Source: a virus
Taxonomy: Duplodnaviria > Heunggongvirae > Uroviricota > Caudoviricetes
Strand: one strand, 5' to 3'
Virus record (IMG/VR): IMGVR_UViG_2648501149_000023
Length of the DNA: 48,089 bases
Below, one piece after another: positions 5,216 through 34,160 of this stretch; the stretch's first letter is position 1, and each line of letters begins with the position of its first letter. Below the pieces are notes generated by a model that was not told the DNA's origin, searched no databases, and worked only from the letters and a program-made list of their open reading frames with translations. The translations under genes and the position numbers were made by a program.

Positions 5216-6184
5216 TTAGTAGGTTATTTTTGTTGCGAATACTTCGCCTTTTACGATGGCTGTTATGATATTTTTAGCAACATCTTCTGATGCACCAACC
5301 TTGATAAGGTCAGCAAGTATTTTGTTATTTACTTCTTTCCGGTGAGCTTTATCCTTTGCTCTACGCTCTTCTTCGTCCTTGATTCTTTTTTCTTCTGCTA
5401 TTCTGGCTTGCTCTTTTGCTTCAGCCTCGCGACGGATTCGTTCAGCCTCCTCATGTGCTTTTCTGCGTTCTGCTTCAATTGCTGCCTGCTTTTCTCTTTC
5501 AGCTCGTTCTGCTGCCTCTTTTGCTTCGCGCTGTGCTCGTTGCTCGGCTTCAATGCGTTCACGCTCTGCACGTTCCGCTGCGGCCTTAGCTTCTGCTTCT
5601 CGCCTTGCTGCTGCTTCAATTTCGGCTTTTGCCTTTGCTTCGGCTTCTGCTCTGGCTTTCTCTTTAGCTTCTCTTTTTAATCGTTCTTCATGCTCTCGCT
5701 TTTCCTGCTCCGCTTTGAGTCTTGCCTCTTCTCTTTGGCGGTCAAATTCGCGATCCATCAAAATAGCTATTTCATGGTCATACTCAATTTGCTTTGCGAG
5801 AGCTTCAGCTGCTGCCTTAGCTTCTTCTTCGGCTTTAATCCGCGCCTGTTCTTCCTCATAATCAGTAAGAGGCTGGCGCGCCTTGGTTTTCAGTTCATCA
5901 AGGCGATCGCGCACTGTCTTGCGGTTAGCATCAATTAGCTTTGGAATTTCCTTCAGTTCAGCAACAAGGTCTTTGCCAAGACCATCGAGATATGTTTTCG
6001 TCTGCGCAACTTTATACGCCAGAGAAGCGATCTCCTTTCTGCCCTTTGCCGTTGTGATATCAGGCACAAAGGACATAACTTCACGTTCAACCTTTTGAAG
6101 GATTTCTTCAATCTGGTCGGCAGACTGAAATACAGTCATTGCATTTGCTTTTTCAATAACAACTAAATCTGTTACTTCACTCAT
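5216..6184 (-). CDS. Coiled-coil protein with a long E/K/A/R-rich repeat region (322 aa)
   Basis: ATG at 6184 preceded by GGAGGA; N-terminal globular part then about 150 aa of ...EAEAKAKAEIEAAARREAEAK... ; possibly DUF1351-like (recall, unverified). Confidence 0.6.
   Translation of the reverse strand: MSEVTDLVVIEKANAMTVFQSADQIEEILQKVEREVMSFVPDITTAKGRKEIASLAYKVAQTKTYLDGLGKDLVAELKEIPKLIDANRKTVRDRLDELKTKARQPLTDYEEEQARIKAEEEAKAAAEALAKQIEYDHEIAILMDREFDRQREEARLKAEQEKREHEERLKREAKEKARAEAEAKAKAEIEAAARREAEAKAAAERAERERIEAEQRAQREAKEAAERAEREKQAAIEAERRKAHEEAERIRREAEAKEQARIAEEKRIKDEEERRAKDKAHRKEVNNKILADLIKVGASEDVAKNIITAIVKGEVFATKITY
5390..5800. repeat. Low-complexity GC-skewed coding repeat (encodes the KAEAE-type region)
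   Basis: Degenerate reiteration of gcttc/gcctc/ttctgc units on the plus strand; produces several spurious ORFs on both strands. Confidence 0.6.
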
Positions 6185-6195
6185 ATATCCTCCGT

Positions 6196-6222
6196 CAAAA
6201 AATTGCCCTCACATTGGAGGGC
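6196..6222 (-). terminator. Intrinsic terminator (GCCCTC/GAGGGC hairpin plus U-run on the minus strand)
   Basis: Plus strand aaaaaattGCCCTCacattgGAGGGC; sits just upstream of the 5216..6184 gene start. Confidence 0.6.
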
Positions 6223-6339
6223 AAAGAAGATTTCCAATAATCAGAACAAGTCGGCTCCTGTTTAGTTACGAGCGACATTGCTCCGTGTATTCACTCGTTG
6301 GAATGAATACACAGTGCAGTGTTTATTCTGTTGTTTGTG

Positions 6340-6366
6340 CCAAAAATAAAGGCCGACTATGCGGCC
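6340..6366 (-). terminator. Intrinsic terminator after the 6357..6980 gene
   Basis: GGCCGactatgCGGCC hairpin with the stop codon in the loop, followed on the minus strand by TTTATTTTTGG. Confidence 0.55.
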
Positions 6367-6980
6367 TCGGAAGGAAGTCCAATCATCTTATTCAAATCTT
6401 CTACCCGTAAAGCAGGAAGTGCTGCACTTGCTTTATCTGCTTCTTTTGGTAGCAACTCTTTGCTTTCAGGCCAGACCTCAATAAGTCGCTTAACTGTTGT
6501 GACTGAGTTCAAAGCAGCCCATACATTTGATTCGATATCCTTTTTCCTGGCTTCAAGTTTTTGTTGCAATGCGCAGATTTCATCAAACCTTTTTGTTATT
6601 TTGTGTTCTGCGTCAAACATGCATTTATCTTTGTCGGGGGTAGGGAGCAATATATCTTCACCGTTGCCGTCTTTTCCGTATGAATGCCAGCCAACCCTTC
6701 TTCCAGATACAGTCAGATAAATCGAACTTGAACTGACATCGCATGAGTAAAATGAACATCCAAGCTTTTGAAGTTCCTCACTTGCAGCCATTAACTTTGA
6801 TGCCAGCTGGTCCACTTCTTCGGTTTTCTTTTTCCCGCCAAACGCAATAACTCTGGCGTCAAGTGCAAGCTGGTTCTTTAACTTTGTTACTTCTTCAAGT
6901 TCAGTGAAAACCCCAGACTTAATTAAAGCGTTACGAGCGATTTCCTCTTTCATTCTCGTAGTTAAGCGGATTGATGACAT
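6357..6980 (-). CDS. Hypothetical accessory protein (207 aa), own RBS and terminator
   Basis: ATG at 6980 (MSSIRLTTRMKEEIARNALIKSG...) preceded by GAGAGGA; no recognisable domain; occupies the sieB/esc position of P22-like genomes. Confidence 0.55.
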   Translation of the reverse strand: MSSIRLTTRMKEEIARNALIKSGVFTELEEVTKLKNQLALDARVIAFGGKKKTEEVDQLASKLMAASEELQKLGCSFYSCDVSSSSIYLTVSGRRVGWHSYGKDGNGEDILLPTPDKDKCMFDAEHKITKRFDEICALQQKLEARKKDIESNVWAALNSVTTVKRLIEVWPESKELLPKEADKASAALPALRVEDLNKMIGLPSEAA

Positions 6981-7385: not shown

Positions 7386-7694
7386 CTATCTCGCCGTAAT
7401 TGATTTCATTGACCTGTAACCAGCAGCATACAGTGCAACTTCAGGCAAACAAACGCTTCCGCCATTCGCATCTGTATTTGATTTACTGATGATGCCGAGT
7501 GATATTGCTTTTTCAGAAAGACTTAAACGCTTTCTCGGTTCTTCCTGAACAGCTTCCTCACTGTCTGTGCCGAAGATCGAATCGATGATGTTGCAGATGG
7601 AATCACGCTCGATAGCCAGCTTTCTGCGCCGCTCATGACGGCGAGTTTTGGCATTTCCTGCAAATGTTGATTTTCCGTACACGATTACCGTCAT
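7386..7694 (-). CDS. N: Antitermination protein N (P22 gene 24 type)
   Basis: MTVIVYGKSTFAGNAKTRRHERRRKLAIERD... contains the P22 N arginine-rich motif GNAKTRRHERRRKLAIER; ATG at 7694 preceded by GAGGA; the ORF track extends upstream to a non-ATG start. Confidence 0.85.
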   Translation of the reverse strand: MTVIVYGKSTFAGNAKTRRHERRRKLAIERDSICNIIDSIFGTDSEEAVQEEPRKRLSLSEKAISLGIISKSNTDANGGSVCLPEVALYAAGYRSMKSITAR

Positions 7695-7813
7695 GATGTT
7701 TTCCTCATGTGAAATGGCTTTGGTGGTGATGCGCCAGGTGCTGATCTTCTGGTTGCTGTCGTTGCAGCTGCAATTCACATCACCGCCAAACCCATCTCGT
7801 TTGGTATCTGTTT

Positions 7814-7848
7814 GCGCTTTGTCAGCGCCCCATCGAAGTTAAAGAGCC
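7814..7848 (-). promoter_or_regulatory. nutL (boxA GGCTCTTTAA and P22-type boxB GCGCTGACAAAGCGC)
   Basis: Minus-strand reading gives boxA GGCTCTTTAA at 7839-7848 and the boxB hairpin GCGC-UGACAAA-GCGC at 7814-7828, upstream of N. Confidence 0.8.
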
Positions 7849-7849
7849 T

Positions 7850-7987
7850 GCCAATCTGTTCCGTTTGGCTTCCAGCTTCCTGCTGATGGCTAAATAGTAC
7901 GATGTGTGCTTTATTGAGTCAATACAAAATGTTCTAAATGCGGTTAGTTTTTTATAACACTTTGTATTTTATTGATTTATATTTTGG
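7850..7987 (-). promoter_or_regulatory. pL / OL region (approximate)
   Basis: AT-rich interval between the cI terminator and nutL containing AGTAC-type motifs also seen in the OR region; individual operators not resolved. Confidence 0.35.
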
Positions 7988-8047: not shown

Positions 8048-8701
8048 TTAACTAAATGTCTCTTCAGGCCACTGGCTGGCGATAACTTTCCCTACTACGG
8101 AACAGCTATCATTGCATGGGATCATTGGATATTGCGGGTTTAGTGGTTGTAGGAACACCTGACCGCTATCCCTGATCAGTTTCTTGAAGGTAAACTCGTC
8201 ACCACCAAGTCTGGCTATGCAGAAATCACCTGGCTCAACAGCCTGCTCAGGGTCAACGAGAATTAACATCCCGTCAGGAAAGCTTGGCTTGGATCCTGTT
8301 GGTGCGGTCATGGAATTACCTTCAACTTCAAGCCAAAACGCACAATCACTGGCTTTTTTGGTTGTGCTGACCCATCTCTCCGCATCGCCTTTGGTAAAGG
8401 TTCTAAGCTCAGGCGAGAACATCCCGGCCTGAACATGAGAAAAAACAGGGTACTCATATTGTTTTTTAACGGGGGCAGATGAGTATTCGCCAACAGGTGA
8501 AAATGTACCGTCGTGGTTGAATGAGACGTTATCAATACCAAGGTATTTAAACACCACACCAATCTCGTCAAGAGATGGATGACGAGATCCGCGCAACCAG
8601 TGACCAATTCCACCCTGCGTCATACCAAGCTCTTCAGCTAACTTCTCTTGAGTTATGCCGAGTTCTTTCATTCTGGATCTAGCCAGTTCATACCATTTCA
8701 T
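8048..8701 (-). CDS. cI: CI-type prophage repressor (HTH plus S24 LexA-like autocleavage domain)
   Basis: N-terminal HTH (...[21 protein letters not shown]...) and C-terminal S24 domain with G-N-S-M and F-K-K-L catalytic motifs (...[10 protein letters not shown]...[28 protein letters not shown]...); ATG at 8701 with AGGA at 7 nt spacing. Confidence 0.9.
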
Positions 8702-8818
8702 TTTCATATCCTTATTATTACGCTCTGTACTAAAACCATCCATGCACAAGATGTATTTTTTGTTTGCATTCCAAAAGTACATGTCGTATTATTGTTTCAT
8801 GGTTACTATGGAGGGCAT
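8702..8818. promoter_or_regulatory. OR / pR / pRM divergent control region
   Basis: 117-bp interval between divergent cI and cro starts with repeated AAAAGTACA-type elements; operators not individually resolved. Confidence 0.5.
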
Positions 8819-9609: not shown

Positions 9610-10409
9610 GCATGAATCTTATGGCTAAGGCCATGAATATAAAGGTTGGCAACCCACTGAGAAAACTGGTTCTGATTAAACTTGCCGATAACGCCAATGA
9701 TAATGGCGAATGCTGGCCTTCATATCAACATGTCGCTGACCAGTGTGAGGTGAGCAGATCGACAGTAAAAAGTCACATTAGGGCACTGGAAGAGATGGGG
9801 CTTTTGAAAAGGGAATTCAGAAGAAAAGGAGAGCTTAACCAGTCAAACGTTTTTTATCTGACGCTGGATAATGCACAACAAATCCAACCAGAATCAGGTG
9901 GGGCAGGAGCTGCCCTAGGGGGTGGGGCAGGAGCTGCCCTAGGGGGTGGGGCAGGAGCTGCCCTAGGGGGTGGGGCAGGAGCTGCCCCCAGAACCTATCA
10001 CTCTTTTGAACCAGTCAATAAACCTAAAAACATTATGTTCGAACATGTCCGAACGGAGTGTGAAAAAACTCCTGACCGTCACGAAGAAACCGACAAGGCA
10101 TTCGAGGAAATATTCTGGTGTGCAGGCATGCGGAAAGCCGGGAAGAAAAACGCAGCTTCAGCATTCAGAACACAGTTCAGGGAATGGCGTAAAACTACCA
10201 GGGGTACGGCAAGCGAGTTTGCCACGATGCTGGCAGAAGACATCGCATGCAGGAATGGTAAGCAGTTCGGATTCGACAGGTTGTTACCATCGAGCTACCT
10301 GAACGGTCAGCGCTGGAACGACGAGAAGCCAGAAACCATTCAACCACAATCCAAACCATCATCCGCAATCACCGTATCGAAAACTGGCTACGTGTTTTTC
10401 GACAGGTGA
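9606..10409 (+). CDS. Replication initiator (O-like; N-terminal HTH domain, internal iterons)
   Basis: N-terminus ...LIKLADNANDNGECWPSYQHVADQCEVSRSTVKSHIRALEEMGLLKRE is a winged-HTH initiator-type domain; the gene contains the 24-bp tandem repeats and is followed by the primase-helicase gene. Confidence 0.7.
   Translation: MSMNLMAKAMNIKVGNPLRKLVLIKLADNANDNGECWPSYQHVADQCEVSRSTVKSHIRALEEMGLLKREFRRKGELNQSNVFYLTLDNAQQIQPESGGAGAALGGGAGAALGGGAGAALGGGAGAAPRTYHSFEPVNKPKNIMFEHVRTECEKTPDRHEETDKAFEEIFWCAGMRKAGKKNAASAFRTQFREWRKTTRGTASEFATMLAEDIACRNGKQFGFDRLLPSSYLNGQRWNDEKPETIQPQSKPSSAITVSKTGYVFFDR
9897..9987 (+). repeat. Four tandem 24-bp iterons (putative replication origin)
   Basis: GGTGGGGCAGGAGCTGCCCTAGGG repeated perfectly 3 times plus a partial fourth copy; each unit holds the inverted repeat GGCAG-gag-CTGCC; followed by an AT-rich stretch (about 9988-10045). 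Confidence 0.7.
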
Positions 10410-15708: not shown

Positions 15709-15848
15709 TGACCCAACGATGGGTTAATTCGCTCGTTGTGGTAGTGAGATGAAAAGAGGCGGCGCTTACTACCGATTCCGCCTAGTTGGTCACTTCGACG
15801 TATCGTCTGGAACTCCAACCATCGCAGGCAGAGAGGTCTGCAAAATGC

Positions 15849-33903: not shown

Positions 33904-34077
33904 ATGACTGAAAAGATATCTTCCATCAAGCCGCGTCAGGTTCGTTTTACAGAAAAGGTTGATTCACATATCCGCGAATCAGCAAAAAGATGCCATAGGT
34001 CAATTCAGGCAGAGATAGCTTATCGAATGGAGTTATTGATGAAACTTGAGGCAAAGGGCGATGTTGTCATCCAATAA
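33904..34077 (+). CDS. Arc/Mnt-family ribbon-helix-helix repressor (Arc-like, 57 aa)
   Basis: Hand translation MTEKISSIKPRQVRFTEKVDSHIRESAKRCHRSIQAEIAYRMELLMKLEAKGDVVIQ has an RHH-type pattern (beta strand, then ...RS...EI...); below the ORF-track cutoff. Confidence 0.55.
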   Translation: MTEKISSIKPRQVRFTEKVDSHIRESAKRCHRSIQAEIAYRMELLMKLEAKGDVVIQ

Positions 34078-34160
34078 AAATAGTGAAGCCCGGCAGTGCG
34101 CGAACACAAACCGGGCCTCTATGTCAGTAACCGTATGCAAGGAAACTAACATGAATATTG
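34078..34160 (-). ncRNA. Possible sar-like antisense RNA across the ant RBS (hairpin plus U-run on the minus strand)
   Basis: GCCCGG...CCGGGC hairpin at about 34084-34112 is followed on the minus strand by TTCACTATTTTTATTGG; the transcript would be complementary to the ant RBS and start codon; a TACAAT -10-like hexamer lies on the minus strand inside the ant 5' end. Start is not mapped. Confidence 0.3.

Follow-up and report, generated by a model that had tools for sequence, protein, structure and literature searches.

The flagged interval of the window (the whole 48,089-nt stretch of phage DNA that was analyzed), taken together with the terminator that closes it, very probably encodes the phage's own copy of PreS (LPR1), the Hfq-dependent trans-acting small RNA (sRNA) of bacteriophage lambda. 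Judged by its sequence, the element is one already known, PreS/LPR1 with the terminator tL2a, of which the window carries a near-identical copy set among other genes than in lambda.

An earlier note had described a structured non-coding segment between two minus-strand terminators and had offered it as a small RNA or a regulated read-through element. The first half of that proposal stands, the segment being homologous to the PreS/LPR1 locus of lambda; the sRNA is, however, not the whole segment but its downstream 87 nt including the second terminator, and the limits drawn in the note have to be extended, as the functional unit reaches position 6197 with the downstream terminator included. The inverted repeat placed in this segment is real, but it directly precedes the mature sRNA and is no part of it, and a read-through function of this hairpin found no specific support.

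Terminators, Folding and Coding Content of the Interval

The terminator scan recovered both minus-strand intrinsic terminators that had been reported to flank the structured non-coding segment. The upstream one is a terminator-like hairpin at 6368..6349 (minus strand; GAGGCCGCATAGTCGGCCTT followed by TATTTTT), and the TAG stop codon of the 207-aa Nmad5-domain gene sits in its loop. The downstream stem-loop at 6224..6203 (minus strand; TTGCCCTCCAATGTGAGGGCAA followed by TTTTTT) is the tL2a homologue and putative 3′ hairpin of PreS. It has an 8-bp stem with five G-C pairs and a U6 tail at 6202..6197 (minus strand), and it is placed 19 nt ahead of the start of the 322-aa gene. At both sites a G+C-rich stem-loop is followed directly by a T-run on the transcribed strand, as is required of an intrinsic terminator, and both pass the scan, which returned 10 sites in 4 kb versus 4.8 ± 2.2 in shuffled sequences. 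The record of phage mEp234 annotates both terminators and no other feature there. The terminator that follows ral in lambda is weaker, with 5 pairs versus 7 at 6368..6349.

Folding of both strands agreed with the structured character of the segment, giving z = −5.2 for the minus strand (6348..6225) and −2.6 for the plus strand. When both terminators were included, the minus-strand fold reached z = −6.3, and the hairpin region gave z = −6.1. Between the first terminator and the hairpin (H0, described below) runs a spacer at 6313..6348 (minus strand), composed of a U-tract and then the CA-rich GGCACAAACAACAGAAUAAACACUGCACU; it is the variable, replaceable part of the interval. The CA-rich tract differs in sequence between the window, prophage Sp5 and lambda, being CATAAATAACAG in the last of these. 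Its part at 6339..6328 bears a superficial likeness to the GcvB target consensus CACAACA. Searches of Rfam 15 gave zero matches at the gathering score over the whole window, and over 6100–6450 they returned chance-level hits only (E ≥ 0.6), e.g., RyhB and rliE.

The claim that the interval holds no convincing ORF was borne out, since it contains just one 27-aa minus-strand ORF (6278..6195) and two plus-strand ORFs that extend antisense into the adjoining gene. A coding role for the first of these, with the peptide MSLVTKQEPTCSDYWKSSLPSNVRAIF as its product, is extremely improbable. Its ATG has a GGAG two bases upstream, and two phage records annotate a hypothetical protein there, but the Shine-Dalgarno-to-start spacing is too short, the ATG is replaced by ATA in all ST104-type and some lambda-type relatives, and indels in relatives break the frame. 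The ORF moreover passes through the terminator, and its end shifts with the downstream junction.

Identity with Lambda PreS

The full-length PreS/LPR1 homologue of 87 nt occupies 6283..6197 (minus strand), its +1 being the G at 6283 and its 3′ end the last U at 6197. It is identical to the lambda RNA at 85/87 positions without gaps, and both differences are located in the terminator, one being a loop base and the other a G-to-A change which turns a U·G pair into U-A. The lambda ends used in this comparison were taken from the cloning and in-vitro-transcription primers P810/P1103/P1104 of the preprint (Table S5; bioRxiv 10.1101/2024.10.31.621285), by which LPR1 starts with GAGCAATGTCGC... and ends with ...GAGGGCGATTTTTT. 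The block as a whole aligns with the ral-ea10 intergenic region of lambda (33905–34086), with Sakai Sp5 and with mEp234, and the flanking genes are not the same. The counterpart of the tL2a hairpin was found by the terminator scan of lambda at 33952..33931, and the copy in Sp5, the Stx2 prophage of Sakai, corresponds to the ECs_1179/ECs_1180 intergenic region.

Silverman et al. located LPR1, which they renamed PreS, "between ea10 and ral", assigned its 3′ end to tL2a, and demonstrated the RNA by northern blot, Hfq RIL-seq and genetics (bioRxiv 10.1101/2024.10.31.621285). It is strongly enriched with Hfq, occurs as ~88-nt and ~68-nt species, and is present ≤10 min after induction and absent in lysogens (bioRxiv 10.1101/2024.10.31.621285); a northern blot of a lysogen would therefore be negative. 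PreS raises translation of dnaN ~4-fold through base-pairing 5′ of its start codon that opens the ribosome-binding site, a mechanism backed by compensatory mutations and structure probing, and represses alaS ~2-fold (bioRxiv 10.1101/2024.10.31.621285). When the seed or the whole RNA is deleted, spontaneous phage yield drops 2- to 4-fold, an effect that depends on Hfq, and there is less phage DNA after UV induction (bioRxiv 10.1101/2024.10.31.621285). The same account of PreS is given in a 2025 review (PMC12197685).

By analogy, Hfq binding, lytic ~88-nt and ~68-nt species and the control of dnaN and alaS probably hold for the window phage as they do for lambda. The window RNA carries the U-tail and hairpin typical of Hfq-dependent sRNAs, and its nt 42–56 are identical to the alaS-pairing sequence presented in Figure S3E of the preprint. 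LPR2, the proposed sponge of PreS, was absent from the window at ≤3 mismatches.

PreS is not listed among the Hfq-bound orphan sRNAs of uninduced E. coli O157 Sakai, the carrier of Sp5, which is expected if its expression is lytic-only but does not count as support for the assignment. Likewise, none of the Hfq-CRAC EcOnc peaks of Sakai falls at the Sp5 copy of the block. EcOnc20 (Tree et al.) was considered as that copy and rejected, since its coordinates (1255628–1255753) correspond to the pL leader upstream of N and not to the ECs_1179/ECs_1180 region.

Seed, Internal Structure and the dnaN Target

The seed UGUUCUGAUUAUUGGAAA (PreS nt 36–53; 6248..6231, minus strand) is identical to that of lambda at 18/18 nt. 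In lambda the seed fits the motif common to the RIL-seq targets of PreS, and the lpr1-delta-seed mutation removes 18 nt, TGTTCTGATTATTGGAAA (bioRxiv 10.1101/2024.10.31.621285); primers P970/P971 give the end points of this deletion, and P838/P839 define the M1 mutation.

PreS nt 36–46 pair with the dnaN leader. For nt 35–60 against positions −46..−16 of E. coli dnaN, the predicted duplex consists of two 11-nt blocks with an energy of −25.0 kcal/mol, computed from the seed region, since RNAduplex run on full-length PreS and the dnaN leader produced a whole-molecule duplex that was unrealistic. Shuffled seeds reached −12.6 ± 2.5 kcal/mol with the same leader, and 0/1000 were as low as −25.0. The target site, AAAGAAGAU...UUAAUCAGAACA, is made of the last dnaA codons. 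Among at least 80 Enterobacterales listed, with genera ranging from Kluyvera, Citrobacter, Klebsiella and Enterobacter to Serratia, Erwinia, Proteus and Yersinia (Salmonella not included), this dnaA-dnaN site is almost invariant, synonymous positions too.

Two stem-loops precede or overlap the seed. In the fold of the 87-nt RNA, the 5′ stem-loop SL1 (GAGC-AAUGUC-GCUC) lies at 6270..6283 (minus strand); in a divergent subfamily it is replaced by GAUGC-AAUCC-GCAUC, a compensatory replacement. The ~68-nt form would be devoid of SL1, with its 5′ end near 6264, a position derived from length alone. SL2 (AACAGG/CUUGUU; 6245..6262, minus strand) is predicted in the 68-nt form, and its 3′ strand runs into the seed. 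Covariation among relatives argues for this helix: 98.5% of the alignment cells are paired, pair 68/81 is A-U or G-C (11/33 sequences), and pair 69/80 is G·U, A-U or G-C.

Distribution and Divergent Relatives

The block, which begins in the 3′ half of the first terminator and runs through the second, was found at 95–99% identity in 329 phage records (lambda, Stx, HK, mEp and some Salmonella phages) and in 2239/5426 complete E. coli genomes. Homology to other phages and prophages stops at 6354, 6337, 6327, 6317 or 6283, and the homology blocks that break upstream of PreS nearly always keep H0.

A sensitive BLAST search showed that Salmonella P22-like phages (ST104, ST160, SE10 and others) hold a diverged homologue which starts exactly at PreS +1, and a third PreS-like subfamily was met in IMG/VR contigs. 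The plan common to the three subfamilies comprises H0, SL1 (GAGC..GCUC, or GAUGC..GCAUC in the third subfamily), an (A/G)UAAC linker at which the ~68-nt form would begin, SL2, a seed containing GUUCUG, an optional extra stem-loop and a terminator. The ST104-type and third-subfamily RNAs resemble the window RNA in this architecture, in complementarity to the dnaN leader and in operon place (5′ of gene 17/c3/kil in ST104). They differ from it in being 82–85% identical over PreS nt 1–53 only, in their seeds (CGUUCUGGUUAAU or CUGUUCUGGUUAUUGG), in an extra stem-loop ahead of a different terminator, and in other H0 stems. The diverged seeds are still complementary to the same site of the E. coli dnaN leader, with energies of −19.5 to −28.1 kcal/mol. 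No published experiments on the divergent PreS-like RNAs were found.

These comparisons bear on a reading in which the segment is just a cluster of terminators and a mosaic junction (the tL2 polarity sites), i.e., a recombination linker that yields no trans-acting RNA in this phage. The flanking genes indeed vary among phages, homology ends at a number of separate points around the block, and tL2a was originally described simply as a terminator, to go by the citation in bioRxiv 10.1101/2024.10.31.621285. A linker, however, would keep neither an 18-nt single-stranded seed invariant nor complementarity to dnaN across three diverged subfamilies, and it would not give compensatory changes in three helices; in lambda, deletion of the seed reduces both plaque yield and the replication of phage DNA in a manner dependent on Hfq (bioRxiv 10.1101/2024.10.31.621285). 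We consider the linker reading very improbable and the PreS assignment far better suited to the data.

A Covarying Hairpin at the 5′ Boundary of PreS

The inverted repeat of the earlier note proved longer than had been reported. Perfect 9-nt arms (6285–6293/6304–6312) extend to 22-nt arms (6275–6296/6301–6322) that are 82% complementary. A single 9-bp inverted repeat is not remarkable by itself, the window having 10 of them versus 1.9 ± 1.7 in Markov resamples. On the minus strand the repeat forms H0, a hairpin at 6312..6285 with a 12-bp stem (U·G counted) and a CAAC loop, which ends 1 nt before PreS +1. The "full deletion" of the RNA made in lambda by its authors keeps H0 (primer P969; bioRxiv 10.1101/2024.10.31.621285).

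The evidence that H0 matters comes from its relatives. A survey of 119 full-length IMG/VR loci, anchored on PreS nt 1–19, yielded 39 distinct upstream sequences that fall into four unrelated stem types (GUGUAUUCA.., AUAGCAGA.., AAUGACCA.. and AAUGCGGA..). All four are 11–12-bp hairpins of about −15 kcal/mol that end 1–2 nt before +1. A second scan, this time with the seed as anchor, brought two more stem types and, within the AUAGC(A/U)GA type, an A-U/U-A swap, so that the H0 position in related phages is taken by at least six stems of unrelated sequence. In 118/119 loci H0 lies 1–2 nt from PreS +1, whatever the upstream gene. HK022 alone lacks the 5′ arm of H0, with PreS kept.

In an alignment of 33 sequences (A4), 97.1% of the H0 cells are paired and 8/12 pairs changed on both sides, counts that represent a handful of evolutionary events and not many independent ones; in slid controls, with the partners moved by 1–3 columns, 29–48% of cells were paired. 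Several of the H0 pairs are U·G, valid on the minus (pL-sense) strand only. Even so few events give the pattern of a selected RNA hairpin and not of a DNA palindrome. A palindrome or protein-binding site acting at the DNA level was rejected on three grounds: the stem covaries, its sequence is unconserved, and the U·G pairs work on one strand only.

Operon Context

The setting proposed for the interval, an N-antiterminated pL operon, was confirmed, with a pL-like promoter, a P22-type nutL and N found upstream of it. The promoter scan placed the pL-like promoter (TTGACT-17-TACTAT) at 7922..7894 (minus strand). It is followed by a boxA-like GCTCTTTAA (7847..7839, minus strand) and a P22-type boxB GCGCTGACAAAGCGC (7828..7814, minus strand), which we take, from the known nut sites of P22, to be the elements of nutL. 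The N gene is at 7697..7386 (minus strand; Pfam N_peptide, 6.7e-37), the 207-aa gene at 6980..6357 (minus strand; Pfam Nmad5, 1.2e-69) and the 322-aa coiled-coil gene at 6184..5216 (minus strand); a CI-like repressor with HTH and Peptidase_S24 domain matches occupies 8048..8707. Read along the minus strand, the order is CI repressor, pL, nutL, N, an 88-aa gene, the Nmad5 gene, the interval, the 322-aa gene, cIII, kil and erf. This PreS copy hence sits in the early-left operon after N and before cIII/kil, as in lambda. Taken in full, the window represents an E. coli phage or prophage of P22-like, mosaic make-up, which comes nearest to vB_EcoP-720R6, phiv205-1 and CUS-3.

PreS is probably processed from the pL transcript. 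The opposite view, that PreS is an independent gene transcribed from its own promoter inside the interval, appears quite improbable. It could draw on the terminator directly upstream of PreS, an arrangement usual for stand-alone sRNA genes, and on KilS, the positional analogue in Rac, for which an own promoter has been suggested (PMC8175672). However, no sigma-70-like promoter was detected by the scan in 6190–6370, and none is conserved among the hairpin types; the −10/−35 positions relative to 6283 fall in H0, where the sequence is wholly unlike in the other hairpin types. The lack of an own promoter agrees with the lytic-only expression in lambda, and the absence of lambda PreS from lysogens together with its appearance ≤10 min post-induction is what would be expected of a pL product.

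A Possible Precursor Helix and the Biogenesis of PreS

H0 would be part of a precursor helix that serves in cutting PreS from the pL transcript. Together with its lower stems it is predicted to form an extended helix at 6275..6322 (minus strand) with an MFE of −24.9 kcal/mol and z = −6.1. In the window/lambda type the upstream ACA.CUG..C pairs with PreS nt 1–9, giving 14 + 3 + 3 bp, i.e., 20 bp with two 1 × 1 loops, and the 5′ end of PreS (+1) is predicted on the 3′ strand of this ~20-bp helix. For the mEp043 and ST104 types the fold gives 11 + 1 + 2 + 4 bp with a 4 × 4 loop, the conserved GCGAAUAAGCAC upstream being able to pair with PreS nt 1–12. Part of the GCGAAUAAGCAC motif doubles as the end of the upstream ORF (..GAA TAA). 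No lower stem is predicted for the L012 hairpin type. Pairing between the upstream GCAC and PreS G1/G3/C4 occurs in 31–32/32 sequences, but the pairs are invariant and hence constitute no proof.

In an RNase III site the scissile bond lies within a mostly regular RNA duplex of ~20 bp, about two helical turns. A helix of ~20 bp with the cut site inside it resembles such a substrate, and the modelled resemblance should be treated as a lead and not as a result. The text of the preprint mentions no hairpin, RNase E, RNase III or transcription start, and leaves the mapping of the 5′ end and its origin unstated (bioRxiv 10.1101/2024.10.31.621285).

We tentatively propose, as one possibility, that H0 and the lower stems formed with PreS nt 1–9/12 make up a dedicated biogenesis element, cut by a double-strand-specific or structure-guided endonuclease (RNase III being the obvious candidate), which would release PreS from the N-antiterminated pL transcript. 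H0, PreS and tL2a might then constitute one self-contained cassette that passes from one pL operon to another among lambda-like and P22-like phages, with at least three subfamilies tuned to the same dnaA-dnaN site.

In such a scheme, once the repressor is lost, RNA polymerase would start at pL, become modified by N at nutL and read past the terminator of the Nmad5 gene into the interval. Transcripts ending at the tL2a-type terminator, or trimmed back to it, would acquire a hairpin and U-tail 3′ end to be bound by Hfq. An endonucleolytic cut 1 nt below H0 would yield the ~87-nt PreS, and a second cut near nt 20 would give the ~68-nt form, in which the seed may be less sequestered. The seed would then pair with the 3′ end of dnaA, 16–46 nt 5′ of the dnaN start codon, and open the ribosome-binding site. 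The resulting increase in sliding clamp would help phage DNA replication, and alaS would be repressed by the same region of the RNA.

Alternatively, H0 may serve the upstream message or its transcription, as a 3′ stabilizer of the processed Nmad5- or ral-side mRNA or as a pause or read-through element, with its adjacency to PreS incidental. In the mEp043- and ST104-type phages H0 comes directly after the stop codon of the upstream ORF, where there is no terminator, and this view would also accommodate HK022, in which PreS is kept without the 5′ arm, and the L012 type with no predicted lower stem. Against it stand the nearly constant distance of H0 from PreS +1 next to any upstream gene, its retention in almost all of the blocks broken upstream of PreS, and the pairing of the conserved upstream GCAC with PreS nt 1–4. 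We regard such an upstream role as rather doubtful.

Comparison with Known Systems

The closest known system is lambda PreS itself. The window copy shares with it the seed, the terminator type, the place in the pL operon upstream of cIII-kil and also the upstream hairpin and spacer. The neighbors, in contrast, are ral and ea10 in lambda and the genes for the Nmad5-domain and the 322-aa coiled-coil proteins here. With flanking genes unlike those of lambda, the context of the transcript and its abundance may differ. The window phage is also, unlike lambda, a P22-like mosaic with P22-type N and nutL.

KilS of the E. coli K-12 Rac prophage (b4833) is, like PreS, an Hfq-associated RNA of the early-left operon of a lambdoid prophage, encoded just 5′ of kil, but an own promoter has been suggested for it and its targets are other than those of PreS (PMC8175672). 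Homology to Rac KilS was rejected, as the two have no sequence similarity, and so was homology to Rac RalA, which is antisense within rcbA.

The anti-sRNAs AgvB and AsxR of Stx and other lambdoid prophages resemble PreS in being prophage-encoded, Hfq-binding and short, with a terminator as the 3′ end and a 5′ pairing region that varies (Tree et al. 2014, PMC4104026). Unlike PreS, these RNAs of 51–60 nt come from moron sites downstream of pR′ and work by sponging host sRNAs (PMC4104026). An AgvB-type GcvB sponge was accordingly discarded as an identity of the element: location and length differ, and the motif region at 6339..6328 varies among homologues.

As to annotation, hundreds of lambdoid phage records and ~40% of complete E. 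coli genomes carry this unannotated intergenic block, which can be labelled as a probable PreS gene with tL2a. Few phage sRNAs have had a host target demonstrated, and PreS is one of them, its target being the replication clamp gene dnaN. What the computational analysis adds is a covarying hairpin at the 5′ boundary, diverged PreS-like subfamilies and a near-invariant dnaA-dnaN target across Enterobacterales. These additions make the biogenesis and host range of PreS testable and leave the identity of the element unchanged.

The route proposed for PreS has a model in bacterial operons. Operon-derived sRNAs of the SroC kind are released by an endonuclease from a longer mRNA, and the internal or operon terminator becomes their Hfq-binding 3′ end. 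SroC itself is presented in PMC4474525 as an sRNA that comes from the gltIJKL mRNA. The biogenesis suggested for PreS would be of the same type, with the difference that here the parent transcript would be an N-antiterminated phage operon and that a covarying hairpin stands at the putative 5′ cut site.

Gene content of the pL operon around PreS

The PreS block of the window, encoding a copy of PreS (LPR1), the Hfq-dependent sRNA described in phage lambda, is lambda-type, but both of its neighbours differ from those in lambda. Directly upstream, at the site of lambda ral, lies a gene (6357–6980, minus strand; PHROG 1965, function listed as unknown) for a protein with Nmad5, the 'nucleotide modification associated domain 5' (PF18757, 1.2e-69). 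Downstream, ea10 is replaced by a gene for a 322-aa protein (5216–6184, minus strand; PHROGs 1376/21365/17211, function listed as unknown) whose centre is a long coiled coil rich in Glu, Ala, Lys and Arg. No Pfam match was obtained for this protein, which is annotated as 'TolA' in mEp043. Further upstream, the nutL site (7814–7847, minus strand; boxA-like GCTCTTTAA, boxB GCGCTGACAAAGCGC) and the arginine-rich motif GNAKTRRHERRRKLAIER of the N product (7386–7697, minus strand) are, in contrast to the PreS block, of the P22 type. The pL operon of the window is thus an example of a mosaic one.

Other lambda RNAs and a second copy of the seed core

Silverman et al. (bioRxiv 10.1101/2024.10.31.621285) probed northern blots for lambda 6S RNA with an antisense sequence that matches the window exactly over 35 nt (15785–15819, RNA on the plus strand), which indicates that the lambda-type pR' 6S RNA/tR' region is present. 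LPR2, the lambda sRNA neighbouring 6S RNA and put forward as a PreS sponge, gave no match in the window with up to three mismatches allowed.

The PreS seed core GTTCTGATTA occurred twice in the window, with 0.2 matches expected. The second exact copy (9669–9678, plus strand) reads in the same direction as the rightward operon and was ruled out as a PreS target because it is identical, rather than complementary, to the seed; it is probably there by chance.

Constraint on the target site in the host

Comparison of the dnaA 3' end/dnaN leader (host sequences L004 and L128–L207) demonstrated that synonymous codon positions within the PreS-binding site (−46 to −16 from the dnaN AUG) are nearly invariant across the Enterobacterales sample, a conserved rare AGA codon included. 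This suggests a nucleotide-level constraint independent of the phage, e.g., a structure controlling dnaN translation.

PreS-like RNAs and a positional analogue in other phages and prophages

Diverged PreS-like RNAs were found in P22-like phages of Salmonella, and a third subfamily also has them (L005:1461–1604, L209, L211, L238 and other IMG/VR loci), differing from lambda-type PreS in their seeds, an additional stem-loop and their terminators. Hairpin and body types of the PreS-like loci are combined in a shuffled fashion, suggesting recombination inside the PreS cassette. KilS, the annotated sRNA of the E. coli K-12 Rac prophage (L208:7406–7503 = NC_000913 1418405–1418502), has no sequence similarity to PreS and occupies the equivalent early-left place, upstream of kilR; an sRNA at this position may be common among lambdoid pL operons.
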